Source: Vulcanimicrobiota bacterium
Lineage (GTDB): Bacteria; Vulcanimicrobiota; Vulcanimicrobiia; Eremiobacterales; Eremiobacteraceae
Assembly (NCBI GenBank): GCA_963812135.1
Contig: CAWETU010000001.1
Span: 1,088,001 to 1,152,000, forward strand
Direction: 5' to 3'
Length of the DNA: 64,000 bases
In this document: one piece after another, positions 1,018 to 31,705 of the stretch
Position numbering within the stretch: position 1 is the stretch's first letter
Layout of the letters: the number at the start of each line of letters is the position of its first letter
Notes under the pieces: model-generated
What the model was told of the DNA's origin: nothing
What the model saw: only the letters and a program-made list of their open reading frames with translations
Databases searched by the model: none
Position numbers and translations under genes: made by a program

Positions 1018-3201
1018 TTGTCAAAGTCCCTCATCATCGTCGAATCGCCGGCCAAGGCCCGCACTCTTAAGAAGTTCCTCGGTTCCCGCTATCAAGTCTT
1101 GCCCTCAGTCGGTCACGTGCGCGACCTGCCCAAGAGCAGGCTCGGCGTCGACGTCGATCTCGACTTCAAGCCGACCTACGTCACTATCAAGGGCAAGGGG
1201 CCGGTCATCAAAGACCTGCGCGCGGCGGTCAAAAAAGCCAACCATATCTACTTAGCAACCGACCCCGATCGCGAAGGCGAAGCCATCGCGTGGCACTTGG
1301 CAGAAGTGCTCAAACTGCCGGATCCGCGCCGCATCGAACTCCACGAAATCACCAAGAGCGCCGTTCAAGAGGCGCTCAAGCATTCCGGGCCTATCAATAT
1401 GGATCGCGTCGACGCGCAACAGGCGCGCCGCATCCTCGACCGGCTCGTCGGCTACAAGATCTCGCCCATGCTGTGGCGCAAGATCCAAGGCGGGTTGTCG
1501 GCCGGACGCGTGCAGTCGGTCGCGGTCAAGCTGATCGTCGACCGCGAGCGCGAGATCGAAGCATTCGTCGCGCGCGAGTACTGGACGGTCTCGGCGCGCT
1601 TGTGGCCGCACGGTCACCACGACTCCGAGCACACGCTCGTCGCGGACCTCGTCAGCGTCGACGGCAAGAAGCTCGAGAAGTTCGACATTCCGACCGAAGC
1701 CGAAGCAACGCGGTTGGCGAACCGCTTGCAGAAGGCGAAGTACACGGTCACCAGCGTCAAGACGCGCGAGGTGCGCCGCTCGCCGGCCGCGCCGTTCACC
1801 ACCAGCACGCTGCAGCAGGAAGCGTCGCGCCGCCTCAAGATGCGCGTGCGCCGCACGATGCAGATCGCGCAGGGGCTGTACGAAGGCGTCGACGTCGGTG
1901 AAGAGGGCACGACCGGTCTCATCACCTACATGCGCACCGATTCGACCAGGCTGTCGACGTTCGCCATGGATCAAGCGCGCGAGTTTATCAATCGCACGTT
2001 CGGCGAGGAATACCACAACGGCAAACAGTTCAAGGTTTCGGAAGACGCGCAAGACGCGCACGAAGCCATCCGGCCGACCGATGCGAATCGCACGCCCGAT
2101 AGCCTCAAGCCGTATCTCGATCCGTCGCAGCTGCGCGTCTACCGGCTGATCTGGGAGCGCTTCGTCGCGAGCCAGATGGCGCCGGCGGTCTACGACCAGA
2201 CGACGGTCGAGATCGACGCCGACAACTGCGCGCTGCGCGCTACGGGCACCGTGCTCAAGTTCGCCGGCTACACGAAGATCTACGAAGAGACGCCCGACGA
2301 AGATGCCACCGAAGAGGACGAGCGCAAGAAGCACTTGCCGCCCGTGGAAGAAGGCCAGGCGATGGATCTGCGCGGCATCATGAAGGCGCAGCATTGGACC
2401 GAACCGCCTCCGCGCTTCACCGAAGCGTCGCTCGTCAAGACGCTCGAAGAGAAGGGTGTCGGCCGGCCGAGCACTTATGCGACGATCGTCGACACGATCC
2501 AGCGCCATTACACCAAGCTCGAGCAGCGCCGCTTCACACCGACGCCGGTCGGCTTGATCGTCAACGACGTGCTGGTCGAGTTCTTCCCCGACATCTTCAA
2601 CGAGACGTTCACCTCGGAGATGGAGCAACGGCTCGATCGCGTCGAGGACAAGCACGACGATTGGCGCTCGCTGCTGCGCGATTTCTACGCGCCGTTCTCC
2701 AAAGATCTGGCGCGCGCCGAAGAGTTCTTCCCGAAGATCGAGATCGAAGAGGAAGAGATCGACGAGACCTGCCCCGCATGCGGACGTCCAATGAAGATCA
2801 AGAACGGGCGCTTCGGCAAGTTCATCGCGTGCACCGGATATCCGGAATGCAAGACGACCAAGCCTATCGTGAAAGATTCGGGCGTCGTCTGTCCGCGCGA
2901 TGGCGGCCGCATCCTCGAGCGCAAGAGCAAGAAAGGCCGCATCTTCTACGGATGCGAGCGCTATCCGGCGTGTGACTTCGTGGCGTGGGATCCGCCGATG
3001 GTCGGTTCCGCCTGCAAGGAATGCGGCGCGTTCTTGGTGCGCAAGTGGGGCCGCAACGGCGGGCGCATCGTATGCAGCGTCGACGCGCACCACGATCACG
3101 GTCAGGAGCAGCCGCACGAGGCGCCGACCAATGGCGTTGTGCACTCGGGCCGCGTGATCGAGCACATGGACGAGCACTTGGAAGAGAAGCGCTCCGCTTA
3201 G
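1018..3201 (+). CDS. topA: DNA topoisomerase I
   Basis: IVESPAKA, ATDPDREGE, SAGRVQS, ITYMRTDS and Zn-ribbon repeats; TTG start after GGAG. Confidence 0.98.
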   Translation: MSKSLIIVESPAKARTLKKFLGSRYQVLPSVGHVRDLPKSRLGVDVDLDFKPTYVTIKGKGPVIKDLRAAVKKANHIYLATDPDREGEAIAWHLAEVLKLPDPRRIELHEITKSAVQEALKHSGPINMDRVDAQQARRILDRLVGYKISPMLWRKIQGGLSAGRVQSVAVKLIVDREREIEAFVAREYWTVSARLWPHGHHDSEHTLVADLVSVDGKKLEKFDIPTEAEATRLANRLQKAKYTVTSVKTREVRRSPAAPFTTSTLQQEASRRLKMRVRRTMQIAQGLYEGVDVGEEGTTGLITYMRTDSTRLSTFAMDQAREFINRTFGEEYHNGKQFKVSEDAQDAHEAIRPTDANRTPDSLKPYLDPSQLRVYRLIWERFVASQMAPAVYDQTTVEIDADNCALRATGTVLKFAGYTKIYEETPDEDATEEDERKKHLPPVEEGQAMDLRGIMKAQHWTEPPPRFTEASLVKTLEEKGVGRPSTYATIVDTIQRHYTKLEQRRFTPTPVGLIVNDVLVEFFPDIFNETFTSEMEQRLDRVEDKHDDWRSLLRDFYAPFSKDLARAEEFFPKIEIEEEEIDETCPACGRPMKIKNGRFGKFIACTGYPECKTTKPIVKDSGVVCPRDGGRILERKSKKGRIFYGCERYPACDFVAWDPPMVGSACKECGAFLVRKWGRNGGRIVCSVDAHHDHGQEQPHEAPTNGVVHSGRVIEHMDEHLEEKRSA

Positions 3202-21978: not shown

Positions 21979-22539
21979 ATGATGATGAGACTAACGGTCA
22001 TCGTTTGGATAATGTTGCTCGCCGGGGTCTGCACGGCGACTGCCGTGGCTGCCACTCCTCCGGCCGTGGCTCCAAAGCCGATGCTTCAACTCAAAGCATC
22101 GCCGACGCCGACACCCACCCCGGCGTTGTACCAGGTCTTGAGATTCCAGATCATGACCGGCAGAGATGATCTGCGCGGCGACAGCGATTCATCGGCTGAC
22201 ATCTGGTACCAAGATGGCGCCAAAGATCATTGCACGCTCAAAGCGCAAAGCGACGGCGGCTGGCCCGTGGGCTCGATGCACACCGTCGATTGCCATCTGG
22301 TTAGAGCGCGGACCGTTGACCAGCTGCGCAAATCGTGGATCTGGGTCAATCTGCAATCACATTCGAGCTTCGGCGAGAGCCCGGACAATTGGAACGTCAA
22401 CGGAATGGAACTGCACGCCGTTCAGATCGGCGGCTCTGCCTCTCCCGGCTGCGTCTACCGCGCGTCAGGAAATCCGTTGTTCCGACTGACCGGCAGCGTT
22501 CCAAAAGTGAACATCATGACATTCTATCACTATTGCTGA
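21979..22539 (+). CDS. Hypothetical secreted protein (possible PLAT-like beta sandwich)
   Basis: GGAGG RBS, signal peptide, PT linker, TGRDDLRG and DNWNV motifs. Confidence 0.65.
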   Translation: MMMRLTVIVWIMLLAGVCTATAVAATPPAVAPKPMLQLKASPTPTPTPALYQVLRFQIMTGRDDLRGDSDSSADIWYQDGAKDHCTLKAQSDGGWPVGSMHTVDCHLVRARTVDQLRKSWIWVNLQSHSSFGESPDNWNVNGMELHAVQIGGSASPGCVYRASGNPLFRLTGSVPKVNIMTFYHYC

Positions 22540-22557
22540 CGCCGAAGGAGCAGACAG

Positions 22558-23088
22558 ATGAAGAGCCTTAGGCTGCTCGCCGCGTTTCTTGTTGTGATCG
22601 CCGCCGCCTCGGTGATCGGATGCACGTCGTCGTCGCGCAATGCTCCGAGCACCTCGCCGAGCGTGGCGCCGGGCGCGACCGCTGCGCCGGCGGCGGTCAT
22701 CAGCGCATGCGATCTTTTCACACCGGCGATCGCGAAACAGTTCCTCGGGCCAAACGCGAAGCAGACCATCAACGCGCAGCCGAATAAGTACATGACGCAT
22801 TGCCAATACACCAGCGACCGAGGTTTTATCAGCGTGATGGTTGGCAGCCGTTGGGACATGATCAGCGTCGGCCAGGAGAACGTTCCGGGAGAAAAGCCGA
22901 TGGCGGGCCTCGGCGACGAGGCCCACATCAACCCGACGAATCTGCGCGTTCGAAAAGGAACGGTCGGAATGAGCATTACCGCGACTGGACCGGCGGGCGA
23001 ATATCAGGGAGCGGCCGCCGACGCGCAACTCGCGCAAGGCGAAGCGTTGTCGGTCAAGGTCGCAAAGGCGCTCCTGCCGCGCCTCTGA
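22558..23088 (+). CDS. Hypothetical lipoprotein (DUF3558-like)
   Basis: AGGAG RBS; VIGC lipobox; SACDLFT, CQY, GLGDEA. Confidence 0.7.
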   Translation: MKSLRLLAAFLVVIAAASVIGCTSSSRNAPSTSPSVAPGATAAPAAVISACDLFTPAIAKQFLGPNAKQTINAQPNKYMTHCQYTSDRGFISVMVGSRWDMISVGQENVPGEKPMAGLGDEAHINPTNLRVRKGTVGMSITATGPAGEYQGAAADAQLAQGEALSVKVAKALLPRL

Positions 23089-23092
23089 CGTC

Positions 23093-23497
23093 CTAGCCGG
23101 CTGAGGGTAACGCGCGCACGTCGGGTTCGACCCAGCGTGCGCGTGCGCGTTCGGAAAAGAGAACGCTTGCCGAGTAGAAGCGCAGCGGCAGATCTTTGTC
23201 CAGCAATCGAGCGTCAAGTTTGAGGAGCTCGTCGAACGTCGCCTCCACGTGACGGGTGGCGTGCGCTGCGACGAGCTTGACCCACAGGACGGTCAGCGTG
23301 TGGTGGAACTTCGACGCGTGGCCGTGCAGCGACGCAAAGTGCTGTATCGTCTCGAGCATCGCTCGCTCGGCGTCCGTCACGCCGCGTTGCCGCACGTAAA
23401 GCCACGCCGCCCTGAGATGATCGCGATGATGGAATGCGTGGTTCGGGATCGCACCCGTCTCGAGGGCATGCAAGAAACCGTCGTCGGAGTGGTCCAC
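23093..23497 (-). CDS. Conserved-looking hypothetical protein
   Basis: GAGG before GTG; FHHRDHLRAAW, FHHTLT, WVEPD motifs. Confidence 0.7.
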   Translation of the reverse strand: MDHSDDGFLHALETGAIPNHAFHHRDHLRAAWLYVRQRGVTDAERAMLETIQHFASLHGHASKFHHTLTVLWVKLVAAHATRHVEATFDELLKLDARLLDKDLPLRFYSASVLFSERARARWVEPDVRALPSAG

Positions 23498-23499
23498 GT

Positions 23500-23916
23500 T
23501 CAACCTCGCTTGGCTTGCCTTTTCGCGAAATGCCTGGCCATCGGTTTCCAATAGCTCGTATGCCAGCCGCTCCTGAATCCCTTGGCCAGCGATGCGGTCG
23601 GGATACCGGCGTGGATCATCGTCAGCTCAGTTCCCTTGCCTTTCGGCTTAAGGCGGATATCGAGGATCGATTCCGGGCGGCCTTTCGGCCACGTTTGGGA
23701 TTTCCACGTCTGGACGATGCGTTTTCCGGGCACCAACAGCAACATCACTCCCGATACATAGCCATTCCACGCGCTCATCTTGCCGCCACGCTTTTTCACG
23801 AGCTTCGCCTTGGCACCGGTGAACGCGGCGTGCTTTTTCGCATCGGCGTAGGCGCCATACACGACGCGCGGCGGAGCATCGAAGGTCACGGTCTGCTCGA
23901 TGGTCTTCGTTTTCAC
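23500..23916 (-). CDS. SRPBCC/AHSA1 domain protein
   Basis: GGAG before GTG; IEQTVTFDAPP, PGKRIVQTW, GTELTMIH, GWHTSYW. Confidence 0.85.
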   Translation of the reverse strand: MKTKTIEQTVTFDAPPRVVYGAYADAKKHAAFTGAKAKLVKKRGGKMSAWNGYVSGVMLLLVPGKRIVQTWKSQTWPKGRPESILDIRLKPKGKGTELTMIHAGIPTASLAKGFRSGWHTSYWKPMARHFAKRQAKRG

Positions 23917-23926
23917 GACGGTCTCC

Positions 23927-24325
23927 TCAGGCGAGAAAATGATATGCGATGAGCAACGCGAGTAAACTCCAGTTAACCACGTGACCGGTCCAACAGAACA
24001 GGCACGGCATGCGGGTGATGAAGAGCAAGCTGTACGCGAGGAATACGGAGAACGCAGCGGCGGCGATCGCCGCGGCCAGGGCGATGTCGTATACGAGGGG
24101 GGTGGCCAGCAGCCACGCCGCGATGCCGAGCAGCACGTAGTACGAGATGCCGAACGCGGAGTTCGGGATCCCAGCAACGGCGCGCGCTTGCGGGCGCGTG
24201 ACCACGCTCGGCTCGTCGAGTTCGCCGCGCGCGAAGCGATTGGCTTTGCTTTGCATGAACGACGCCGCATATAAACCGATGAGACATAGCACGTCGATGC
24301 TCAGCGGGAAGAGGAGCCGAGTCAC
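23927..24325 (-). CDS. Vitamin K epoxide reductase (VKOR) family protein
   Basis: Four TM segments, GIPNSAFG, CLFC redox motif. Confidence 0.85.
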   Translation of the reverse strand: MTRLLFPLSIDVLCLIGLYAASFMQSKANRFARGELDEPSVVTRPQARAVAGIPNSAFGISYYVLLGIAAWLLATPLVYDIALAAAIAAAAFSVFLAYSLLFITRMPCLFCWTGHVVNWSLLALLIAYHFLA

Positions 24326-25158
24326 ACGCCGACGTTGAAATCGCGCAGCGCGGCGTTGAGCGACGTTTTTTTGTCGGTCGATTCAGAACGCTCGCCGATG
24401 ATCAGCGCGCAGGGCGTGCCGAACAATCCACCCGGAAAGGTCTTGGATTGCATGCCGGGGATCACGACGGCTCGCTCGGGTACTTCGCCCTTGTACACTT
24501 TCGCCGGCTGTTGCATGACATCGATGATCGGCGTCGAGGCGGTGAGCACCGTGCCCGCGCCCAAGACCGCTTCCTTGCCGACGTACACGCCTTCGACCAC
24601 CACGCAGCGCGATCCGATGAAAGCGCCATCGTCGATGATCACCGGCCGCGCGCTCGGCGGTTCCAGCACGCCACCGATGCCGACGCCGCCCGACAAGTGC
24701 ACGTTCGTGCCGATCTGCGCGCAGCTACCGACGGTCGCCCACGTGTCGACCATCGTCCCTTCGCCCACATATGCGCCGATGTTGATAAACGACGGCATCA
24801 ACACGGTGTTTGCCGCGAGATACGCGCCGAAACGCACGGCTGCAGGCGGCACGATGCGGATGCTCGTGCGGTTCTCCCACATCGATTTGAGCGGGATCTT
24901 GTCGTAGAAGCGCATCGGCCCGGCTTCGCTCGGCTCGGCGTTGTGAGCCGCGAAATACAATTCGATGGCCTGCTTGACCCAGTCGTTGACCACCCATCCG
25001 TTGTCGGTGGGTTCGGCCGCGCGCAACCAGCCGTTGTCGAGCGCACCGACGGTTCTTTCGACGGCTTTACGCACCGGCGCCGTCGAGAGCAGCGCGCGAT
25101 CTTCGTACGCCGCATGAATAGTCGCCGCGAGTTGTTCGCGATCGAGATTGACTGCCAT
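24322..25158 (-). CDS. dapD: Tetrahydrodipicolinate N-succinyltransferase
   Basis: DKIPLK, MVDTWATVGSCAQIG, GGVLEP, KTSLNAALR. Confidence 0.96.
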   Translation of the reverse strand: MAVNLDREQLAATIHAAYEDRALLSTAPVRKAVERTVGALDNGWLRAAEPTDNGWVVNDWVKQAIELYFAAHNAEPSEAGPMRFYDKIPLKSMWENRTSIRIVPPAAVRFGAYLAANTVLMPSFINIGAYVGEGTMVDTWATVGSCAQIGTNVHLSGGVGIGGVLEPPSARPVIIDDGAFIGSRCVVVEGVYVGKEAVLGAGTVLTASTPIIDVMQQPAKVYKGEVPERAVVIPGMQSKTFPGGLFGTPCALIIGERSESTDKKTSLNAALRDFNVGV

Positions 25159-25207
25159 CGGATGAGAGGTTAGCGGCACACGCCCCCGGGGCCTCGTCCC
25201 GCGCTCG

Positions 25208-25237
25208 TTGACACCCCTCGCGAACGCATAGTATAAT
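25208..25237 (+). promoter_or_regulatory. Consensus sigma70 promoter of the tRNA operon
   Basis: TTGACA, 18-nt spacer, TATAAT; 16 nt before tRNA-Gln. Confidence 0.9.
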
Positions 25238-25253
25238 TTGTATTCGCGTTCGT

Positions 25254-25329
25254 TCCCGGGTGGTGTAACTGGTAACACGCCTGACTCTGAATCAGGAGAC
25301 TCGAGGTTCGAAACCTTGCCCGGGAGCCA
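25254..25329 (+). tRNA. tRNA-Gln(CTG)
   Basis: 76-nt cloverleaf: TCCCGGG/CCCGGGA acceptor, CCTGA-CTCTGAA-TCAGG anticodon arm, TTCGAAA T-loop, encoded CCA. Confidence 0.97.
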
Positions 25330-25371
25330 TCCTCCTCAGAACGCGTGGGTCGATTATTGTCGACCGCTCAT

Positions 25372-25447
25372 GGCCCCATCGTCTAGAGGCCTAGGACGCC
25401 GCCCTCTCAAGGCGGAGACAGGGATTCGAATTCCCTTGGGGCTACCA
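25372..25447 (+). tRNA. tRNA-Glu(CTC)
   Basis: 76-nt cloverleaf: GGCCCCA/TGGGGCT acceptor, CCGCC-CTCTCAA-GGCGG anticodon arm, encoded CCA. Confidence 0.97.
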
Positions 25448-25481
25448 CTTGCAGATAACGAATCGAATGGCGAAATAGAAC

Positions 25482-25781
25482 ATGCGCACTTTCGATTTAT
25501 TCCTCGCGGCTGTGCTTACCCTGGTCGTCGTCCTCACCGCGGTGAACTATTTCTATTATCAGCATGAGATAGAGATGATCAATCGGGCGATCATAGCACT
25601 CGATCCCACCCATCCGCCGACTCCAGCAGACGAGGCAATGCTCGAGAAGATGGTTCGGGAGCATAGGAATGTACCGGGCGAGTATCGTTGGCTCTTTGGG
25701 CGTGAGGCAATTATCGTTTTCCTGGCGCTTGGGGCTATCGCCCCTCGGGTCCGCCTGAAGCAGCGCACGGCTACTACCTAA
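25482..25781 (+). CDS. Hypothetical 2-TM protein (array unit 1)
   Basis: 99-aa ORF filling the space between tRNA-Glu and its first 3' repeat; AT-richer than flanks. Confidence 0.65.
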   Translation: MRTFDLFLAAVLTLVVVLTAVNYFYYQHEIEMINRAIIALDPTHPPTPADEAMLEKMVREHRNVPGEYRWLFGREAIIVFLALGAIAPRVRLKQRTATT

Positions 25782-25846
25782 ACTCTAGACATCTTATATA
25801 GAAGGGGTGGGACTCTTCGGAAAACGTCCCACCATGGGGCCGCCGA

Positions 25847-25893
25847 GCCCTCTCAAGGCGGAGACAGGGATTCGAATTTCCTTGGGGCTACCA
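25847..25893 (+). repeat. Direct repeat of the tRNA-Glu 3' half (att-like site 1)
   Basis: 46/47 identical to 25401-25447, ending in CCA. Confidence 0.95.
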
Positions 25894-25899
25894 ATCCGA

Positions 25900-26250
25900 A
25901 TGCCTGCTTCTCAGATTGCAGCGGTCAAGTGGACTCTGCGAGTCCTCGTTGCGGTTGCCGCGCCTATTTTAGCGTACTTCCTAACGTGGTATGTTGCAGG
26001 CTTTACGATCAGTCCGAATATGGCGCCTCCCGGTCAACCCGAGTTCAGGGAGGGCACACCCGCCACTATCTTTGTATACGCCACCCTCTTCCCGTTTACG
26101 TTGGTTGCCTTTCTCGTCTTTGGGCTTCAGGTGGTGAGCCGGAAACCGTGGACTCCGCAATCAATCTTGTTGAGCATTTTTCTCCCGTTCTGCGCGGTCG
26201 GATTTTTCTGGCTTTTCTTATACCTCGCGTACCACGCAAGAATGTTCTAG
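25900..26250 (+). CDS. Hypothetical 3-TM protein (array unit 2)
   Basis: ATG 6 nt after the repeat CCA; three hydrophobic helices. Confidence 0.65.
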   Translation: MPASQIAAVKWTLRVLVAVAAPILAYFLTWYVAGFTISPNMAPPGQPEFREGTPATIFVYATLFPFTLVAFLVFGLQVVSRKPWTPQSILLSIFLPFCAVGFFWLFLYLAYHARMF

Positions 26251-26321
26251 GTCCAAACCCCACCCAATAGGTAGAGTGGGGACAGGCTCTAAACCTTATG
26301 ATACGGAGCCCGCTTGGCACT

Positions 26322-26366
26322 TCTCAAGGCGGAGAACGGGGATTTCAATTCCCCTGGGGGCTACCA
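26322..26366 (+). repeat. Diverged direct repeat of a tRNA-Glu 3' half (att-like site 2)
   Basis: TCTCAAGGCGGAGA...GGGGCTACCA matches 25405-25447 with 4 substitutions and 2 single-base insertions. Confidence 0.88.
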
Positions 26367-26417
26367 ACTGCCAATTCCCGCCAGGGTTTTGGCTCTTTCT
26401 ATAGCGTAGATTTTCAA

Positions 26418-26942
26418 ATGGACAAAGCGAGTCGTTTAGAAGAACGCCGCAAACTGTTTGAGGAACACGGTCACCTTTCGTACTTGGCAGAAGTGCAAAA
26501 ACGCGAGGGCGGGTTCGGCGTGGTGGTGCGTGCGGTCTCGCAGGTTGAAGAATTACTCGACGTTGCTCTTAAGAAGCACGAGAAGTGGAGCGTTGTCAAA
26601 GACCTTGCCGAGGACGTAGATAGCAAGATTCGTTTGGCGCGGGCGTTGGACATAATTGACTCTGACATGTACGCAGTCATGCAAGCACTGAGGCGTCTTC
26701 GCAATGAAGTTTCACACGAATGGAATGCCGTCGTTGACGAAAAACGAGTAAACGAATTAATGAACGCTATTCCATCCCACGTAAGAGACAGCACTAAACA
26801 ATTAGTGGGAGTCCTCCAGCGGCTTCCTCTTAGTGAGGAGGATAAAAGGGAACTTTGGTTAGTCGAATTGATGATTGTTGTGGCGACGGCGGTCATGACC
26901 GTAAACGGGAAATGGCTCCCGCTGGGGCCTGCGGTCACTTAA
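26418..26942 (+). CDS. HEPN/MtlR-like domain protein (array unit 3)
   Basis: VEELL...SKIRLARALDIIDSDMY...LRRLRNEVSH, an R-x4-H motif in MtlR/HEPN-like context. Confidence 0.65.
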   Translation: MDKASRLEERRKLFEEHGHLSYLAEVQKREGGFGVVVRAVSQVEELLDVALKKHEKWSVVKDLAEDVDSKIRLARALDIIDSDMYAVMQALRRLRNEVSHEWNAVVDEKRVNELMNAIPSHVRDSTKQLVGVLQRLPLSEEDKRELWLVELMIVVATAVMTVNGKWLPLGPAVT

Positions 26943-26997
26943 AGATTGCAGAAGATGAAGCGAGAGGTGCCTGCTTGTACGTCGCCTCAGAATTGAG

Positions 26998-27213
26998 CTA
27001 GTAGCCTTCCGGCTCGTCTCCCTCTGGGTCGAGGTCGGCTTCGAGTGCATCGGGATTGTTCGCGTTCGGGTTCGCCGTTCGGCTCGAGGGCGAGCCCTGG
27101 CTTGGATTGACCCTGTCATACACGACGGACGCGGCGCTGCTCAGGACTCGAGCCGCACCCCAAGCCAACGCGATGATGATCGCGAAGAAGAGGAGACCCA
27201 TAAGTAGGCCCAT
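26998..27213 (-). CDS. Small hypothetical membrane protein
   Basis: One N-terminal TM and acidic tail; abuts the DUF1801 gene. Confidence 0.5.
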   Translation of the reverse strand: MGLLMGLLFFAIIIALAWGAARVLSSAASVVYDRVNPSQGSPSSRTANPNANNPDALEADLDPEGDEPEGY

Positions 27214-27214
27214 T

Positions 27215-27589
27215 TCATTTACGCGTGCGTTTTTCGTTCTGCGCGACGCGCGCCTTCACTAGCTTCTTCACAAGAGTGGCAGATAAGGGCTTGTCCACGG
27301 GAAAGCGGATCGTGCCCTTCGATGAGTCGAGGTTCTTGAGATCCTTCTTGAACTTTCTCATGACGGCCATGCTCATCGGGAAGAAACTGCAATGGTGCGT
27401 AAACGCGGCGAATGCCACCAGCCCCCCTTTGTATCGAAAGGTTGGGATCTGATAGCTGATAGTCTCCGTTGCTTCCTTTGGCGCGGCGGACCTGATCGCC
27501 ACACGAATCTTCTTTAGAGTGCCGCGGGCCGGTTCCGGAACCCCCGCGATGTACTGGTCGACTCCGGATTTCGTATTTTTCTTGCGCAT
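27215..27589 (-). CDS. DUF1801/YdhG-like protein
   Basis: VDQYIA, ETISYQIPTF, SKGTIRF, LVKARVAQN. Confidence 0.88.
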   Translation of the reverse strand: MRKKNTKSGVDQYIAGVPEPARGTLKKIRVAIRSAAPKEATETISYQIPTFRYKGGLVAFAAFTHHCSFFPMSMAVMRKFKKDLKNLDSSKGTIRFPVDKPLSATLVKKLVKARVAQNEKRTRK

Positions 27590-27711
27590 GACGCGGAGCG
27601 TTCCGCTCAACCCGAACAACCCCTTGGCGGCGGAGCCTGTCGGCGTAAAGCAGTATACGTTCGGGGCAAAGGCAAACTAGACAGGGTCTTACTCCATAAC
27701 TGAGGAGTTCT

Positions 27712-28758
27712 TTGCAAGCAGTCATACTCGTCGGCGGTGAGGGGACGCGGCTTCGGCCGCTGACCTACGCCTTGCCCAAACCCATGGCGCCGCTGCTCGG
27801 CCGGCCCTTCATCGGCTGGATCATCGAGCGCCTGCGCGTCGCCGGCGTGGACGACGTGATCCTGTCATGTTGCTACCTGCCCGAGGCGATCGAGTCGCAT
27901 TTCGGCGATGGCCGCTCGCATGGCGTTCGCTTGCATTACGTCCACGAAGAGCAGCCGCTCGGCACCGCCGGCGCCATCAAGAACGCGGTCGACCACATCG
28001 ATGGAACGATCTTCGTTTGCAACGGCGATATCCTCACGGGCGTCGACCTGCGCGCGTTGCTGACGGCGCACCGCAAGAACAACGCAGTGGCGACGATCCA
28101 CACGCGCCCGGTCGACGATCCAAGCCAGTTCGGCGTCGTCGAGACGGACGCGGATGGCAACGTGCGCCGTTTTGTCGAAAAGCCCAAGCCCGGCGAGACG
28201 TCCGCGCGCGACATCAACGCGGGGACATATGTGCTCGAGCCCGAGGCGATCGAAGCGATTCCGGCAGGACGGCCCGTCTCGATCGAACGCGAGACCTATC
28301 CGCTGCTCATCGACTCGACGCACCGCGTGTTCGCGGTCTCGACCAACGATTATTGGATCGACGTGGGGCGTCCGGACACGTACCGCCAAGCGCACCGAGA
28401 CATCCTCGACGGCCGCTACGCGCATCCGGTCGGCGTGGAACTCGCGCCCGGCATTTGGTCCGCTGACGGCGCGCCACTGCCGCGCGATGTCAGCGCGCGC
28501 GCTCCGCTGTATATCGGGGCGGGCGCCACCATCGGCGCGGGCGTGACGCTCGAACCGTATTCGGTGATCTACGACGGCGGCGCGATCGGCGACGGCGCAA
28601 CCATCGGCGACGCGATCCTGTGGCCGGGTTGCAGTGTCGGCGAACACGGCACCGTGCGCGGCGCGATTCTCGGACTGGACGTCGCAGTGGAACCGAAGGC
28701 TGCCGTGCCGGCGGGCTCGGTGCTCGGCCGCGGTGAGCGGGTGACCGCCGCCCGCTGA
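27712..28758 (+). CDS. Sugar-phosphate nucleotidyltransferase (mannose-1-P guanylyltransferase-like)
   Basis: ILVGGEGTRLRPLT, PLGTAGA, NGD, YWIDVG and LbH tail. Confidence 0.92.
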   Translation: MQAVILVGGEGTRLRPLTYALPKPMAPLLGRPFIGWIIERLRVAGVDDVILSCCYLPEAIESHFGDGRSHGVRLHYVHEEQPLGTAGAIKNAVDHIDGTIFVCNGDILTGVDLRALLTAHRKNNAVATIHTRPVDDPSQFGVVETDADGNVRRFVEKPKPGETSARDINAGTYVLEPEAIEAIPAGRPVSIERETYPLLIDSTHRVFAVSTNDYWIDVGRPDTYRQAHRDILDGRYAHPVGVELAPGIWSADGAPLPRDVSARAPLYIGAGATIGAGVTLEPYSVIYDGGAIGDGATIGDAILWPGCSVGEHGTVRGAILGLDVAVEPKAAVPAGSVLGRGERVTAAR

Positions 28759-30914
28759 TGGATCCGCTCGATCAGCTCAACGACGAGCAGCGCGCCGCCG
28801 CGGCTCACACCGATGGCGCTGTCCTCATCTTCGCCGGCGCGGGCTCGGGTAAGACGCGCGTCCTGACGCACCGCATCGCGTACCTCCTCGCAACCAACCG
28901 CGCGCCGGCGCACCGCATCCTCGCCGTCACCTTCACGAACAAGGCAGCGGGCGAACTGCGCACGCGCCTCCAGGCACTGGTCGGCGACGCGTCGCGGGGT
29001 CTGTGGGTCGGCACGTTTCATTCGATCGGCGTGCGCATGCTGCGCCGCGACGGTGCCGCGGTCGGCGTCGCTCCTAATTTCGTGATCTACGATGACGCGG
29101 ACCAGCGCACGCTCATCAAAGAGATCCTGCGCGACATGAACATCGACGAGCGCAACTATCATCCAGGCGCGGTGCTGCGGCACATCGGCCGCGCGAAGGA
29201 GCGCCTGCTCGATCCGCTCGCCTACGCCGACTCCGCCGACGGGCAGCTCTCGCCGGTGGTCGCTTCCTTATATAGCGAGTATCAGCGCCGGCTCAATCAG
29301 GCCAATGCGCTTGATTTCGACGACCTCATCATGCGGACGATCGGGCTGCTCGAGCGCCCGATGGAGGGCAAGCCCTGGCGCGAGCGCTTCCAGTACGTGC
29401 TCGTCGACGAGTATCAGGATGTCAACGAAGCGCAGTACCGCATGGTGCGCGGCCTGTCGCAAGGCAGCGGCAATATCGCGGTCGTTGGCGACGACGATCA
29501 GTCGATCTACGCGTTCCGAGGCGCCGATCACCGCATCATCTTGCGCTTCGAACGCGATTTCCACAACGCCTCGACCTATCGGCTCGAGCGCAACTACCGC
29601 TCGACATCGCCGGTCCTCTCGGCTGCCAACGCGTTGGTGTCGCACAACACGCAGCGCCATCGCAAGAAGCTGTGGACAAGCCGCGAGGGCGGCAAACCGG
29701 TGCGCGTGTACGCCGCCACCACCGAACGCGACGAAGCGCGTTTCGTCGTCGATACCATTCACGCAGGCGTGACCGATGAGGGTCGCAGCCTGAGCGATCA
29801 CGTCGTGTTGTATCGCACCAACGCCCAATCGCGCGCCTTTGAAGAGGCCATGTTGGTGGCCGGCACTCCGTATCGCGTGGTGGGCGGCGTCGGGTTCTAC
29901 GCGCGCGCCGAAGTCAAAGACGCGCTGGCGTATCTGCGCTACATCACCAATCGCGACGACGGCATCAGCTTGCGTCGTATCATCAACGCGCCACGGCGCG
30001 GCATCGGCCAGGCGACGCTCAACGCGATCGCCGACGAAGGGGCGCGCCGCGGGCTTTCATTCGCACGCGCCATGCTCGAAACTGAGGTCATCGCGGCGGT
30101 TGCTCCCAAAAAGGCCAAGGACCTTGCGGCGTTCTTCCGCGACATCGACGCGTTCGCGGTGATCGCCACCGATCAGGGCCCAGCCGCGGCGCTCGTCTCG
30201 GTCTTGGAAGACACCGGCTACGTCAAAGAGCTGCGCGACGAGGACACGGTCGAAACGCGCTCGCGTCTCGAGAATTTACAGGAGCTGATCGGCGTGGCCC
30301 GCGAGTACGAAGAGCGCGAGGGGCCGGACGTCGCCGGGTTCTTGGCGAACATCTCGTTGGTGTCGGATCTCGATGCGATGGACAAGGGCGGATCCGCAGT
30401 GACCCTGATGACGCTGCACATGGCCAAGGGCCTGGAGTTTCCTGTCGTGTTCCTCGCGGGTCTGGAAGAAGGCGTGTTCCCGCACAATCGCGCGCTCGTG
30501 GATCCGCATGAGATAGAAGAAGAACGAAGGCTGGCATACGTCGGCGTGACGCGCGCGATCGACGAGTTGTATCTCTCCTTTGCGAAGCGACGCACGACGT
30601 TCGGCAGCGCGTATCTGCATCCGCCGTCGCGCTTCCTCAACGAGATGACGGGTCTCGAGTTCCTCAATGCGCCGCCGCTCTCGCCGATCGGGTCGCTCGC
30701 GGGCACGTGGGAAGAGCTGGCCGCACCGGCGCCGATCGAGCGCGAGATCGAATTGGTCGTCGGTGACGCTGTCACACATCCGAAGTTCGGCGCGGGCAAG
30801 GTCCTTGAGGTGCGCGGTGCCGGCGGCGATGCGTTCGTAACCGTGGACTTCGGCGCAGTTGGGCGCAAGAGCATCATGCTCAACTACGCCAAGCTCGAGA
30901 AAGTCGCTCCGTAG
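28758..30914 (+). CDS. pcrA: ATP-dependent DNA helicase PcrA/UvrD
   Basis: AGAGSGKT, VDEYQD, VGDDDQSIY, NYRS, EERRLAYVG. Confidence 0.96.
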   Translation: MDPLDQLNDEQRAAAAHTDGAVLIFAGAGSGKTRVLTHRIAYLLATNRAPAHRILAVTFTNKAAGELRTRLQALVGDASRGLWVGTFHSIGVRMLRRDGAAVGVAPNFVIYDDADQRTLIKEILRDMNIDERNYHPGAVLRHIGRAKERLLDPLAYADSADGQLSPVVASLYSEYQRRLNQANALDFDDLIMRTIGLLERPMEGKPWRERFQYVLVDEYQDVNEAQYRMVRGLSQGSGNIAVVGDDDQSIYAFRGADHRIILRFERDFHNASTYRLERNYRSTSPVLSAANALVSHNTQRHRKKLWTSREGGKPVRVYAATTERDEARFVVDTIHAGVTDEGRSLSDHVVLYRTNAQSRAFEEAMLVAGTPYRVVGGVGFYARAEVKDALAYLRYITNRDDGISLRRIINAPRRGIGQATLNAIADEGARRGLSFARAMLETEVIAAVAPKKAKDLAAFFRDIDAFAVIATDQGPAAALVSVLEDTGYVKELRDEDTVETRSRLENLQELIGVAREYEEREGPDVAGFLANISLVSDLDAMDKGGSAVTLMTLHMAKGLEFPVVFLAGLEEGVFPHNRALVDPHEIEEERRLAYVGVTRAIDELYLSFAKRRTTFGSAYLHPPSRFLNEMTGLEFLNAPPLSPIGSLAGTWEELAAPAPIEREIELVVGDAVTHPKFGAGKVLEVRGAGGDAFVTVDFGAVGRKSIMLNYAKLEKVAP

Positions 30915-30943
30915 TAGGGCCATCTTGTCCCGCCCTTGAAACG

Positions 30944-31705
30944 ATGAAGCACATGATACGGGCCGGTGTTGCCGGAGCGAACGGCAAGATGGGGACGCTG
31001 ACCGCGAGCGCGCTCGACAACGCCGACGACATCGAATATGTCGGTGGACTCGTGCGTGCTGGATCAGCGAAGGGGCCGAAGCAATTCAGTGATATCGAGA
31101 CCTTTGTCAAGCAAGCCCATCCGGACGTGCTCGTCGACTTCTCCCTCTTCCCGGACTCGAAGCGCCTCGTGCTCGACGCGCTCGAGCGCGGCGTGCGCGT
31201 GGTCATCGGCACGTCCGGCTACGGCGCCGACGATCTTCAAGACGTTCGCCACGCGGTCGACCGCACCGGCGTCGGCGCGATCTTCGCACCCAACTGCGCA
31301 GTCGGCGCGGTGCTCATGATGAAGTTCGCCGAAACGGCGGCGCCGCATTTCGATGCGATCGAGATCGTCGAGACGCATGAGACCGGCAAAAAAGATGCGC
31401 CGTCGGGCACCGCGATGGCGACGGCGCGCAAACTCGCCGAGCACGGGACGTTCAAGCGCGCAGCGACCAAGGTCGTCAAAGCCGAAGGCGCGCGCGGCGC
31501 GGAGATCGGCGGCATCGGTGTGCATAGCCTGCGGATGCCCGGCATCGTCGCGCAGCAAGAAGTGGTTCTCGGCGGTCATGGCGAGATGCTGAGCATCCGT
31601 CATCAGTCCTTGTCTCGCGACTCGTTCATGCCGGGCGTGTTGCTGGCGGTTCGCGCGGCGGCAAAGCTCACGCGCTTCGTCGACGGATTGGGGGAGTTGC
31701 TGTGA
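30944..31705 (+). CDS. dapB: 4-hydroxy-tetrahydrodipicolinate reductase
   Basis: GANGKMG, ETHETGKKDAPSGTA. Confidence 0.95.
   Translation: MKHMIRAGVAGANGKMGTLTASALDNADDIEYVGGLVRAGSAKGPKQFSDIETFVKQAHPDVLVDFSLFPDSKRLVLDALERGVRVVIGTSGYGADDLQDVRHAVDRTGVGAIFAPNCAVGAVLMMKFAETAAPHFDAIEIVETHETGKKDAPSGTAMATARKLAEHGTFKRAATKVVKAEGARGAEIGGIGVHSLRMPGIVAQQEVVLGGHGEMLSIRHQSLSRDSFMPGVLLAVRAAAKLTRFVDGLGELL

Follow-up and report, generated by a model that had tools for sequence, protein, structure and literature searches.

Downstream of its tRNA-Glu(CTC) gene, an uncultured soil bacterium of the Vulcanimicrobiota carries short, one-gene units set apart from one another by copies of the 3' half of that tRNA. 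We directly observed this tandem anatomy, the variability of the locus among congeners, an absence of recombinase genes, end motifs shared by units with different cargo, and, in sequence identities, the transfer of cassettes. The interpretation that we prefer, and to which we assign about an even chance, is that tRNA-Glu(CTC) is an insertion hotspot at which miniature integrative elements, none of them autonomous, have accreted in a short tandem array by anticodon-loop integration. The DNA analyzed, referred to here as the window, comprises 64,000 nt of contig CAWETU010000001.1 (GCA_963812135.1, positions 1,088,001-1,152,000), and it belongs to a genome that is 98% complete and has a G+C content of 0.641.

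Table 1. Features of the tRNA-Glu(CTC) array and its surroundings, in window coordinates
Feature	Position	Strand	Description
Sigma-70-type consensus promoter (TTGACA, 18 nt, TATAAT)	25208-25237	+	12/12 hexamer positions; precedes tRNA-Gln/tRNA-Glu
tRNA-Gln(CTG)	25254-25329	+	ARAGORN, Rfam
tRNA-Glu(CTC), intact	25372-25447	+	attL side of array; ARAGORN, Rfam
c1, cassette gene filling unit 1	25482-25781	+	ORF, 99 aa
Right-end arm of unit 1, type A	25806-25846	+	8-bp hairpin GGTGGGAC...GTCCCACC, then GCCGCCGA abutting the 5' side of the tRNA half
Copy 1 of tRNA-Glu 3' half	25847-25893	+	tRNA positions 30-76, 46/47 bases identical; ends in CCA
c2, cassette gene filling unit 2	25900-26250	+	ORF, 116 aa; starts 6 nt past CCA of copy 1
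Right-end arm of unit 2, type B	26258-26321	+	hairpin CCCCAC...GTGGGG, then ggctctaaacc...acggagcccgctt
Copy 2 of tRNA-Glu 3' half, decayed	26322-26366	+	tRNA positions 34-76; 4 mismatches and 2 one-base insertions
Terminator-like hairpin with T-rich tail	26380-26403	+	13 nt past copy 2; score 23, whereas 500 shuffles reach at most 14
c3, third gene	26418-26942	+	ORF, 174 aa; G+C 0.50

The features of the locus are collected in Table 1. ARAGORN found no tRNA in the window besides tRNA-Gln(CTG) and tRNA-Glu(CTC), and Rfam returned no other RNA family within 25100-27300. A preliminary description of this DNA had reported an intact tRNA-Glu with two 3'-half copies, the near one with one difference and the far one with six, and our alignments give the same counts. 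Measured from start to start, the repeats are spaced by 446 and 471-473 bp. A 14-mer from the repeat core occurs three times in the window against 0.53 expected, a number reached in 2 of 100 shuffles. When a profile of the core is run over the region 22001-31000, it returns three sites with E values of 1.7e-19, 5.6e-19 and 9e-9, corresponding to the tRNA and both copies, and no decayed third half-copy beyond the third ORF. In the whole genome, the same profile returns six sites, which are the two tRNA-Glu genes and four fragments. There are two bounded units, unit 1 (25448-25846, 399 nt) and unit 2 (25894-26321, 428 nt), and one co-oriented ORF nearly fills each of them. Of the three genes that had been described for the array, c3 lies behind the terminator-like hairpin with a left boundary and no right-hand tRNA copy and thus is not a bounded cassette. 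The claim that the units are AT-richer than their surroundings was borne out, with a G+C content of 0.54, 0.54 and 0.50 in the three units versus 0.64-0.68 in the flanking genes.

The promoter upstream of the two tRNA genes matches the sigma-70 consensus, and no second promoter-like site was found on the + strand within 25150-27300. In a congener, G001, a hairpin homologous to the one beyond copy 2 (29/34) starts 20 nt after an intact tRNA-Glu(CTC). Because this homologue follows an intact tRNA, the hairpin at 26380-26403 is probably the native terminator of tRNA-Glu(CTC), pushed outward by the inserts. Copy 2 probably represents the 3' end that the tRNA-Glu(CTC) gene had before the insertions. 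The genes c1 and c2 would then lie between a strong tRNA promoter and its displaced terminator, where read-through transcription is probable.

Short motifs to the left of the tRNA half are common to units with unrelated cargo. In the type A arm that ends unit 1, GCCGCCGA is present at four of five aligned sites (in the source genome, at both tRNA-Glu loci of G006, and in G001), and the aligned site of G011, a genome of another genus, has the variant GCCGCCAA instead. The type B arm that ends unit 2 is homologous to the arm preceding copy 2 in G003, at 77% over 120 nt including the core. Arm types B and C were each found in two genomes. Pairs of type A arms share 20-28 of their last 45 nt versus 7-18 of 45 for pairs of different types. 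Conservation of the arms is modest, at about 45-60% over 45 nt, and the left ends of the units show no conservation at all. We ruled out that the arm hairpin is a genome-wide REP-like repeat, since four regex variants of it gave 4, 5, 4 and 1 matches, no more than control hairpins. Folded attC-like structures at the boundaries were ruled out as well, as these fold no better than shuffled sequences (z of -0.27 and -0.38).

The three genes have few relatives. The c1 protein has hydrophobic stretches at its N- and C-terminus and matches no family in Pfam, NCBIfam or PADLOC. Its sole homologue, P0004, encoded on a JGI contig of 1289 nt, is 78% identical, and the reading frame of P0004 takes in a tRNA-Glu 3' half together with the leader found at c1. 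The residues preceding the half-tRNA in P0004 are not those of an intact tRNA, which places P0004 behind a fragment and thus at a different position of an array. The c2 product is predicted from its sequence to be a small multi-pass membrane protein; it has one homologue of 91% identity and distant relatives of 77-97 aa, all from outside the 40 related genomes that we compared. The c3 protein contains an R-x4-H motif (RNEVSH) and shows a weak match to DUF4145 (E 1.4e-4, 22.3 bits) that falls under the cut-off of 23.1 bits. No match below E 0.008 came up when 15 cassette proteins were compared with PADLOC defence models. None of the three genes has a homologue among the 40 related genomes, and c3 is strain-specific; the preliminary description had considered that relatives might carry these genes inside large integrase-bearing islands, and no such islands were found with them.

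We compared the locus across seven genomes of the genus, the source and six congeners, within a wider set of 40-41 related genomes of the phylum Vulcanimicrobiota/Eremiobacterota. Arrays of the same anatomy are present at tRNA-Glu(CTC) in four of the six congeners (G001, G003, G005 and G006) and in G011, and at tRNA-Glu(TTC) in G000, G001 and G006. The arrays differ in unit number and content, and the locus is different in every congener examined, as expected of a hotspot and not of the invariant locus that had been considered beforehand. Altogether, 13 bounded units were found; they measure 318-859 nt and have a G+C content of 0.51-0.61, versus 0.641 for the genome. In 12 of them the longest ORF runs in the direction of the tRNA, and in several units the ORF starts 6-35 nt past the CCA. 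The minimal one-gene unit of the preliminary description is therefore a recurrent form, and none of the 13 contains an integrase or a remnant of an integrase or transfer gene. A parent element was not found in these genomes. Some of the boundaries in relatives are partly lost, as seen in a truncated fragment in G005 and in two cassettes of G001 that are fused without a fragment between them.

Cargo moves between positions and genomes. A DUF4760 cassette in the first position of G006 is 93% identical over 551 nt to one in the third or a later position of G001, with flanks at 74%, and a cassette with a small gene is 90% identical between G001 and G011, with flanks at about 74%. These identities demonstrate, at the level of sequence, transfer of cassettes between genomes and between array positions. 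Conversely, constant ends enclose different cargo at one and the same position in unit 1 of G000 versus G006 and in TTC unit 1 of three genomes. DUF4760 is not an obligate partner of tRNA sites, given that a tRNA is found within 700 nt of only 4 of its 24 copies in G000 and, phylum-wide, within 2.5 kb at only 11 of 79 loci. An RNA-mediated origin from mature tRNA halves is ruled out because the copy at the TTC locus does not stop at CCA but extends into a duplicate of the tRNA's genomic terminator, with 87% identity over 83 nt.

Scans of public collections for the type A junction yielded no further case. Exact matches numbered zero in public genome contigs and two in metagenome contigs, one of these in a contig 99.9% identical to G006 and the other a chance match. 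A mismatch-tolerant scan of 32 genomes of the family gave four sites, all in the genus. At three or fewer mismatches, the pattern matched in 32 of 385 genomes of the class, a scan in which a reversed control also matched many, and matches at tRNA-Glu loci were limited to the genus and one in G011. The tRNA half had no match in viral contigs.

As had been stated beforehand, the window contains no integrase gene, with no match to PF00589, PF00239 or PF07508. The source genome has a single PF00589 match, an Xer-like gene located about 375 kb past the end of the window and about 413 kb from the array, and no match to the five other recombinase/transposase families searched. The Xer-like protein passes the NCBIfam cut-off for "site-specific tyrosine recombinase/integron integrase" (231.7 versus 220 bits) but is far under the integron-integrase cut-offs (128.6 versus 265 and 86.1 versus 435 bits). 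No tRNA-Glu array in the seven genomes of the genus has a PF00589 match, and the array-bearing G000, G001 and G003 have the Xer-like recombinase only, with G001 being just 81% complete. Pfam searches of the window ORFs and of 43 island ORFs revealed neither recombinase hallmark genes nor replication or packaging hallmark genes. Among 41 related genomes, the only integrases adjoining tRNA-Glu are those of G030 and G034, which leave repeats of 20-23 nt starting at tRNA positions 51-54 and thus use a different sublocation; an integrase specific for the anticodon-arm site of tRNA-Glu was not found in this set. A sublocation scheme for tRNA-integrating elements was reportedly set out by Williams in 2002. 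The recombinase acting in trans that the preliminary description proposed was likewise not found. Fragmentary Logan contigs from four public soil runs, which, over 24900-27700, reproduce only 26138-26442 and the flanks, contained neither a circular junction nor an excision joint and showed no presence/absence polymorphism.

The genome has a single Xer-like gene among six recombinase/transposase families, yet at least seven of its tRNAs have half-copies that bound acquired DNA, including integrase-less islands of 2-7 kb at other tRNAs. A possible model for such sites is tRNA-Asp. In G005, an apparent single integrase gene split over two frames (PF00589 model positions 2-124 and 120-169) lies directly behind this tRNA, and in G006 an integrase-less unit of 1.6 kb lies between tRNA-Asp and an integrase element like that of G005. 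The third Asp copy of G000 has the same arm (80-84% over about 200 nt) and no integrase. Between them, G005 and G006 have integrases next to tRNA-Asp or tRNA-Thr. By analogy, an integrase-less unit and an integrase element sharing an arm may illustrate how the tRNA-Glu units are served.

Under the interpretation of accreted miniature elements, each unit would enter as a small circle that would carry, as its attachment site, a short arm followed by a copy of the part of tRNA-Glu between the anticodon arm and CCA. Crossover by a tyrosine-type integrase would fall in the anticodon stem-loop, and integration would rebuild the tRNA from the element's copy and push the former 3' half outward, leaving the 3' half of the present tRNA-Glu(CTC) as a derivative of the latest insert. 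Because new units would rebuild the tRNA and displace the old half, the oldest copy should be farthest out and most decayed. The order of decay in the two copies fits such polarised entry at the tRNA, which the preliminary description had put forward. Since the units have no recombinase gene, a helper-borne integrase would have been needed; it may have been supplied in trans by a helper element that is now absent from the genome.

The same arrangement might instead consist of scars, with the units as distal leftovers of successive kilobase-sized integrase islands that lost their integrase ends by deletion, never having been mobile themselves. We regard this as possible, though doubtful. Decay is visible in the six differences of copy 2, the truncated fragment of G005, the fused cassettes of G001 and the missing right boundary of c3, and there is the apparent split integrase gene at tRNA-Asp in G005. 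The 2-7-kb integrase-less islands at other tRNAs agree with this too, as such islands are read as decayed elements in the available parts of PMC5704250. Random deletion, however, predicts a broad range of sizes, truncated genes and integrase remnants, none of which was found: all 13 units fall within their narrow size range with one ORF each, mostly intact and co-oriented and often starting close to the CCA. The occurrence of the same cargo at different array positions, far more similar than its flanks, also weighs against scars. Constant ends with different cargo at one position would be expected if an old array, founded by an integrase, now exchanges cargo with relatives by RecA-dependent recombination, with the tRNA, half-copies and arms as anchors, and no site-specific recombinase turned up among the families searched, the Xer-like gene aside. 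The anchors are short, though, consisting of 47 nt and a poorly conserved arm, and exchange leaves unexplained the uniform one-gene size, the orientation bias and the differing number of half-copies between genomes, so that we consider it quite unlikely.

An unlikely alternative is a dedicated integron-like platform made of different parts, in which promoterless one-gene cassettes would be captured singly at tRNA-Glu. Its attachment site of about 100 nt would consist of the short arm and the tRNA-Glu half, capture would take place in the anticodon arm of both the CTC and TTC genes, and the tRNA promoter would express the cassettes up to the displaced tRNA terminator. The recombinase would be encoded elsewhere, by a rare circulating helper or, more boldly, as the host Xer-like enzyme. 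XerCD acts on IMEX elements at dif and has been proposed to act likewise on pdif modules of Acinetobacter plasmids. Insertion and excision of the units by the single Xer-like recombinase would be in keeping with its being the sole tyrosine recombinase in G000 to G004, with the NCBIfam cut-off that it passes, and with units that lack a recombinase and stack in tandem, as in IMEX elements. At the tRNA-Glu array, however, the flanks are tRNA halves by direct reading, and the core is a G+C-rich anticodon arm unlike the dif sites known to us. A crude scan of the genome found no canonical dif-like palindrome (ATAA-N6-TTAT), the genus has at tRNA-Asp elements that carry an integrase and have a site of the array's kind, and we are aware of no case in which Xer acts on a tRNA. 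We therefore hold a role of the host enzyme to be very improbable. Least credible of all is that the array is an artefact of misassembled repeats or of fortuitous similarity. No independent contig crosses the copy 1 junction, which lay outside the contig cover from public runs; but the repeat scores are far beyond chance, the architecture recurs in one metagenome contig and in five assemblies besides that of the source, and a contig of public run X1, which may be the source sample, spans 26138-26442 without a difference and thereby reproduces the copy 2 junction.

The Eremiobacterota/Vulcanimicrobiota abound in soil and are uncultured. Provided that the one-gene units move as such, they would be, to our knowledge, the smallest site-specific integrative elements known, and a search of literature titles and abstracts for such arrays found none describing one-gene units. 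Integron-like cassette stacking could then arise on ordinary tRNA integration chemistry, and their attachment site, very small at about 100 nt, would lend itself to testing as a tool. Should the units be mere scars, the locus would still document the turnover of a tRNA hotspot in a lineage poor in mobile elements.

Integron arrays consist of small, mostly one-ORF, promoterless and co-oriented cassettes of unknown function, with a fixed promoter to which the newest cassette lies nearest and a recombinase that is not part of the cassette. The tRNA-Glu array resembles them in its small, one-ORF, co-oriented units stacked downstream of a fixed promoter, with the recombinase outside the unit. It differs in having no adjoining intI, attI or attC, and, as read from sequence and folding, its boundary is a tRNA half. 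Classical islands and prophages of the anticodon-loop kind are kilobases long and carry an integrase beside the tRNA. With these, the array shares a repeat that extends from the anticodon arm to the tRNA 3' end and a tRNA restored by the element's copy, whereas it has no integrase gene and its units are sub-kilobase.

Closer parallels come from tandem islands. As far as the accessible sections of PMC3146451 describe them, Dehalococcoides ssrA islands stand in tandem behind a tRNA-like gene, the 3' end of that gene is repeated directly at the end of each island, with an extra conserved motif just upstream, and 15 of them lack an integration module and were suggested to be cis-mobilizable. Those islands use the T-loop of tmRNA, a 20-bp repeat and a serine recombinase and hold many genes, in contrast to the anticodon arm, the 43-47-nt repeat and the one gene per unit seen here. 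CIMEs, defined for ICESt1/ICESt3-related elements, are presented in the available parts of PMC5704250 as decayed, kilobase-size ICEs or IMEs that are mobilised in cis with a neighbouring ICE. Like CIMEs, units 1 and 2 lie between repeats that resemble attL and attR and copy the 3' end of the target gene, lack integration and transfer genes, and follow a tandem order in which new elements would integrate at the reconstituted site. Unlike CIMEs, they belong to units of 0.3-0.9 kb with one, mostly co-oriented gene, in a genome without an ICE, IME, relaxase or integrase, and unit 3, which holds c3, has a left site only.

Tycheposons of Prochlorococcus carry their own integrase and replication modules and have kilobase length, according to the portions of the preprint at hand (bioRxiv 10.1101/2020.12.28.424599). 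The likeness lies in a host almost free of classical mobile elements, in tRNA-adjoining islands, and in tandem elements separated by partial tRNAs alone; moreover, most Prochlorococcus islands are described there as having no active element, with scattered partial tRNAs as remnants. No tycheposon hallmark gene is present at the tRNA-Glu array, and those portions of the preprint do not mention one-gene units with shared arms. CIMEs, Dehalococcoides ssrA islands and tycheposon islands thus already provide described cases of tandem accretion of decayed or non-autonomous elements, and the dedicated integron-like system of the preliminary description is not set apart by our data from the small end of such ordinary accretion. 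By analogy, the units at tRNA-Glu(CTC) may be viewed as CIMEs, or as tycheposon remnants lacking an integrase, on a miniature scale.

The window contains two tRNA genes by ARAGORN and Rfam, and behind the second, tRNA-Glu(CTC), two copies of its 3' half bound units of 399 and 428 nt. This arrangement, reported in the preliminary description, is borne out by both programs, a repeat finder, alignment and a profile of the core (the repeated part of the tRNA), which detects only the tRNA and copies 1 and 2 within 22001-31000 and six sites in the whole genome. The proposed three-gene array stands as to its ORFs of 99, 116 and 174 aa (c1, c2 and c3), but the third gene lacks a right-hand boundary. 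The three ORF-bearing segments are AT-richer, as had been suggested for the two bounded ones, with G+C contents of 0.54, 0.54 and 0.50 versus 0.641 for the genome. Two 9-mers, TGCCTGCTT and AGATTGCAG, found where c2 begins (window 25901-25922) recur in swapped order right after the c3 stop codon (26943-26977); this may reflect coincidence or a past rearrangement.

Features of tRNA arrays in the window's genome (G000), its congeners (G001-G006) and another genus (G011); positions are those of the window unless a contig is named
Feature	Position or extent	Strand	Detail
tRNA-Gln(CTG)	25254-25329		ARAGORN, Rfam
tRNA-Glu(CTC)	25372-25447		ARAGORN, Rfam
Copy 1, tRNA-Glu 3' half, tRNA positions 30-76	25847-25893		46/47 bases match (repeat finder, global alignment)
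Copy 2, tRNA-Glu 3' half, positions 34-76	26322-26366		4 mismatches, 2 one-base insertions (repeat finder, global alignment)
c1, 99-aa ORF		+	3' of tRNA-Glu(CTC)
c2, 116-aa ORF		+	3' of copy 1
c3, 174-aa ORF	26418-26942	+	3' of copy 2
Terminator-like hairpin	26380-26403		3' of copy 2
G000 tRNA-Ala(CGC) 3' half	6.7 kb behind the tRNA		Self-comparison
G000 tRNA-Val(GAC) 3' half	2.9 kb behind the tRNA		Self-comparison
G000 tRNA-Pro(GGG) 3' half	7 kb behind the tRNA		Self-comparison
G000 tRNA-Asp(GTC) array (L035)	C1:1291033-1307265, outside window		Four 3' half-copies over 16 kb; tRNA-Asn 3' half within array
G000 tRNA-Glu(TTC)	530 and 859 nt		Two copies, two units
G000 tRNA-Thr(CGT) 5' half			Present
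G006, 3' of tRNA-Glu(CTC)	700 nt		One unit
G005, 3' of tRNA-Glu(CTC)	728 nt		One unit, truncated half-copy, then more genes
G001, 3' of tRNA-Glu(CTC)	827 and 532 nt		Two units, then further genes
G003, 3' of tRNA-Glu(CTC)	318 and 753 nt		Two units
G011, 3' of tRNA-Glu(CTC)	641 nt		One unit
G002, 3' of tRNA-Glu(CTC)			Half-copy absent

A single plus-strand promoter-like site was found in 25150-27300; it lies 5' of tRNA-Gln, and all 12 of its hexamer positions agree with the consensus. The hairpin 3' of copy 2 is homologous (29/34) to one that begins 20 nt past the intact tRNA in the congener G001. In the simplest reading of these signals, the inserts parted the tRNA from its own terminator, which would place c1 and c2 inside the tRNA transcription unit; c3 lies beyond the terminator.

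Related loci were collected by a DNA search of 41 genomes followed by extraction of regions for inspection; tallies over related genomes take in G010, G013 and G016, on which no specific statement depends. The order dapD-like gene, tRNA-Gln, tRNA-Glu, DUF1801 gene is conserved, and, in the comparison across relatives proposed in the preliminary description, what fills it differs in every congener. Units of 530-859 nt also follow tRNA-Glu(TTC) in G000, G006 and G001, with none in G005. These unit-bearing TTC genes (C1:107705-107777 and relatives; loci L027, L028, L029 and L031) encode no CCA and are followed by a terminator hairpin that the unit supplies; CCA is encoded in the uninterrupted G005 gene and in the displaced half-copies. 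An RNA-mediated origin of the half-copies is unlikely because the TTC-locus copy runs on into a genomic terminator copy.

Altogether, 13 bounded units span 318-859 nt. The longest ORF is co-oriented with the tRNA in 12 of them (P = 0.0017 for at least 12/13 at even odds, for units that are not fully independent and ORFs called mechanically), and ORFs often start 6-35 nt past CCA. Four of these units' ORFs have a Pfam match above the family cut-off (DUF4760 in three, cupin in one). The arms, short sequences directly left of the half-copies, group into types, each shared by units whose cargoes are unrelated. Type A consists of a hairpin and then GCCGCCGA (GCCGCCAA in G011); it is seen at copy 1 of G000, in G006 at tRNA-Glu(CTC) as well as tRNA-Glu(TTC), and in G001 and G011. 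Type B is seen at G000 copy 2 and in G003, and type C in G005 and G001. Conservation is modest, with 20-28 of the last 45 nt agreeing within type A versus 7-18 between types. G006 and G001 have a DUF4760 cassette in common, as the first unit of the former and the third or a later one of the latter; the two versions share 93% identity over 551 nt, versus 74% for the flanking DNA. G001 and G011 likewise share a cassette with a 76-88-aa gene, at 90% identity. Uniform size and content, ORF starts, arm types and cargo identity are signs of cassettes rather than random leftovers.

The genes c1, c2 and c3 were found in none of the 40 related genomes searched, whether in large integrase islands, a location that had been considered, or elsewhere. 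A search of 5.8 billion proteins gave one homologue of c1, P0004 (78% identity), whose N-terminal extension corresponds exactly to a translated tRNA-Glu 3' half followed by the window's leader (LSRRRQGFEFPWGYHLQIT). The preceding residues are MGLPPT, which would fit a type A junction, whereas an intact tRNA would give a stop and then DAA. By back-translation of P0004, a c1 cassette therefore probably lies behind a tRNA fragment in another organism. A 91% homologue exists for c2, a member of a small-membrane-protein family; the sole relative found for c3 is an identical copy. The c3 product has a weak DUF4145 match, a hydrophobic C-terminal stretch and the sequence RNEVSH, an R-x4-H motif of the type that marks HEPN RNases, and may be toxin or defence-type cargo.

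The DUF4760 family (PF15956) consists of small proteins whose N terminus forms a membrane helix, and it is matched 24 times in the 2.8-Mb G000 versus never in 14 control genomes. The matches include sites outside the window (e.g., C1:106617-107027 and C1:1913086-1917425), and four copies share one 4-kb cluster. The family accounts for 7 of 24 ORFs scanned in relatives' tRNA-Glu arrays and has no PADLOC match. At L126, a locus of a Vulcanimicrobiota MAG (2348-3179), tRNA-Ala(GGC) and a T-arm-plus-CCA-like sequence on the tRNA's strand enclose a DUF4760 gene. The arrangement resembles a one-gene unit of ~730 nt at a different tRNA and in a different genome, with its gene oriented oppositely.

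In G000, whose assembly is 2.79 Mb long and 98% complete and holds the window at C1:1088001-1152000, self-comparison of all 47 tRNAs revealed 12 partial copies outside tRNA genes, and the 3' halves behind Ala(CGC), Val(GAC), Pro(GGG) and Glu(CTC) start at tRNA positions 30-48. Each half-copy of the tRNA-Asp(GTC) array has its own terminator hairpin; among the genes it carries are a LuxR-STAND regulator, VIT1, MgtC/DUF4010, an AI-2E transporter and MarR, but no integrase. Nor did Pfam detect an integrase among 43 ORFs of the other G000 islands, which comprise regulators, transporters and unknowns.

The reported lack of an integrase in the window is confirmed, and the only PF00589 match of the whole genome is a 315-aa Xer-like protein (288 bits against the XerC model, below the equivalog cut-off; 231.7 bits against an archaeal-XerA-type model, above the cut-off of 220). 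Its gene (L032, 1123-2070; C1:1527056-1527571) stands singly instead of a XerC/XerD pair, and a crude motif scan found no canonical dif-like palindrome. Across the seven genomes of the genus, five likewise have a lone PF00589 match, Xer-like; the other two also have integrase-type matches. Resolvase, large serine recombinase, rve, Y1 and IS110 transposase matches are all absent from G000.

Directly 3' of tRNA-Asp in G005, PF00589 matches in two reading frames cover model positions 2-124 and 120-169, apparently as the parts of a single interrupted integrase gene. This 3.9-kb element terminates in a ~200-nt arm and a tRNA half. In G006, a 1.6-kb integrase-less unit with the same arm lies between tRNA-Asp and that element, and the arm recurs at 80-84% identity, without an integrase, at the third Asp copy of G000. 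These common arms indicate that integrase-bearing and integrase-less units coexist in the genus. No helper element for tRNA-Glu was found among the related genomes searched; integrases adjoining tRNA-Glu in the further relatives G030 and G034 have repeats of 20-23 nt that start at positions 51-54.

The preliminary description envisaged integron-like cassettes added one by one. We give about an even chance to a related reading, in which miniature non-autonomous elements would enter serially at the anticodon arm of tRNA-Glu, with the integrase supplied in trans. No circle or excision joint was seen in fragmentary public-run contigs over the array. Decay of ordinary islands would account for the several decayed boundaries in relatives, but the uniform size and content of the units and the lack of integrase remnants in the tRNA-Glu arrays of all seven congeneric genomes argue against such scars, which we consider unlikely while still deserving some weight. 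Homologous exchange anchored on the repeats seems to us distinctly improbable, movement of the units by the host Xer-like enzyme very improbable, and an artefact scarcely credible.

The general concept of att-flanked tandem units without recombinase genes is already published. Descriptions exist of CIMEs and accretion, with such units in tandem (PMC5704250); Dehalococcoides ssrA islands, whose repeat is preceded by a conserved motif and 15 of which lack an integration module (PMC3146451); and Prochlorococcus islands with partial tRNAs and remnants (10.1101/2020.12.28.424599). A full-text literature search, whose coverage leaves out most subscription journals, returned no title or abstract describing arrays of one-gene units. 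In contrast to these three systems as described, the host here has one Xer-like gene and otherwise none of the searched recombinase or transposase families, the units are regular, mostly co-oriented, 0.3-0.9 kb long and carry one ORF, and the arrays occupy both tRNA-Glu isoacceptors.
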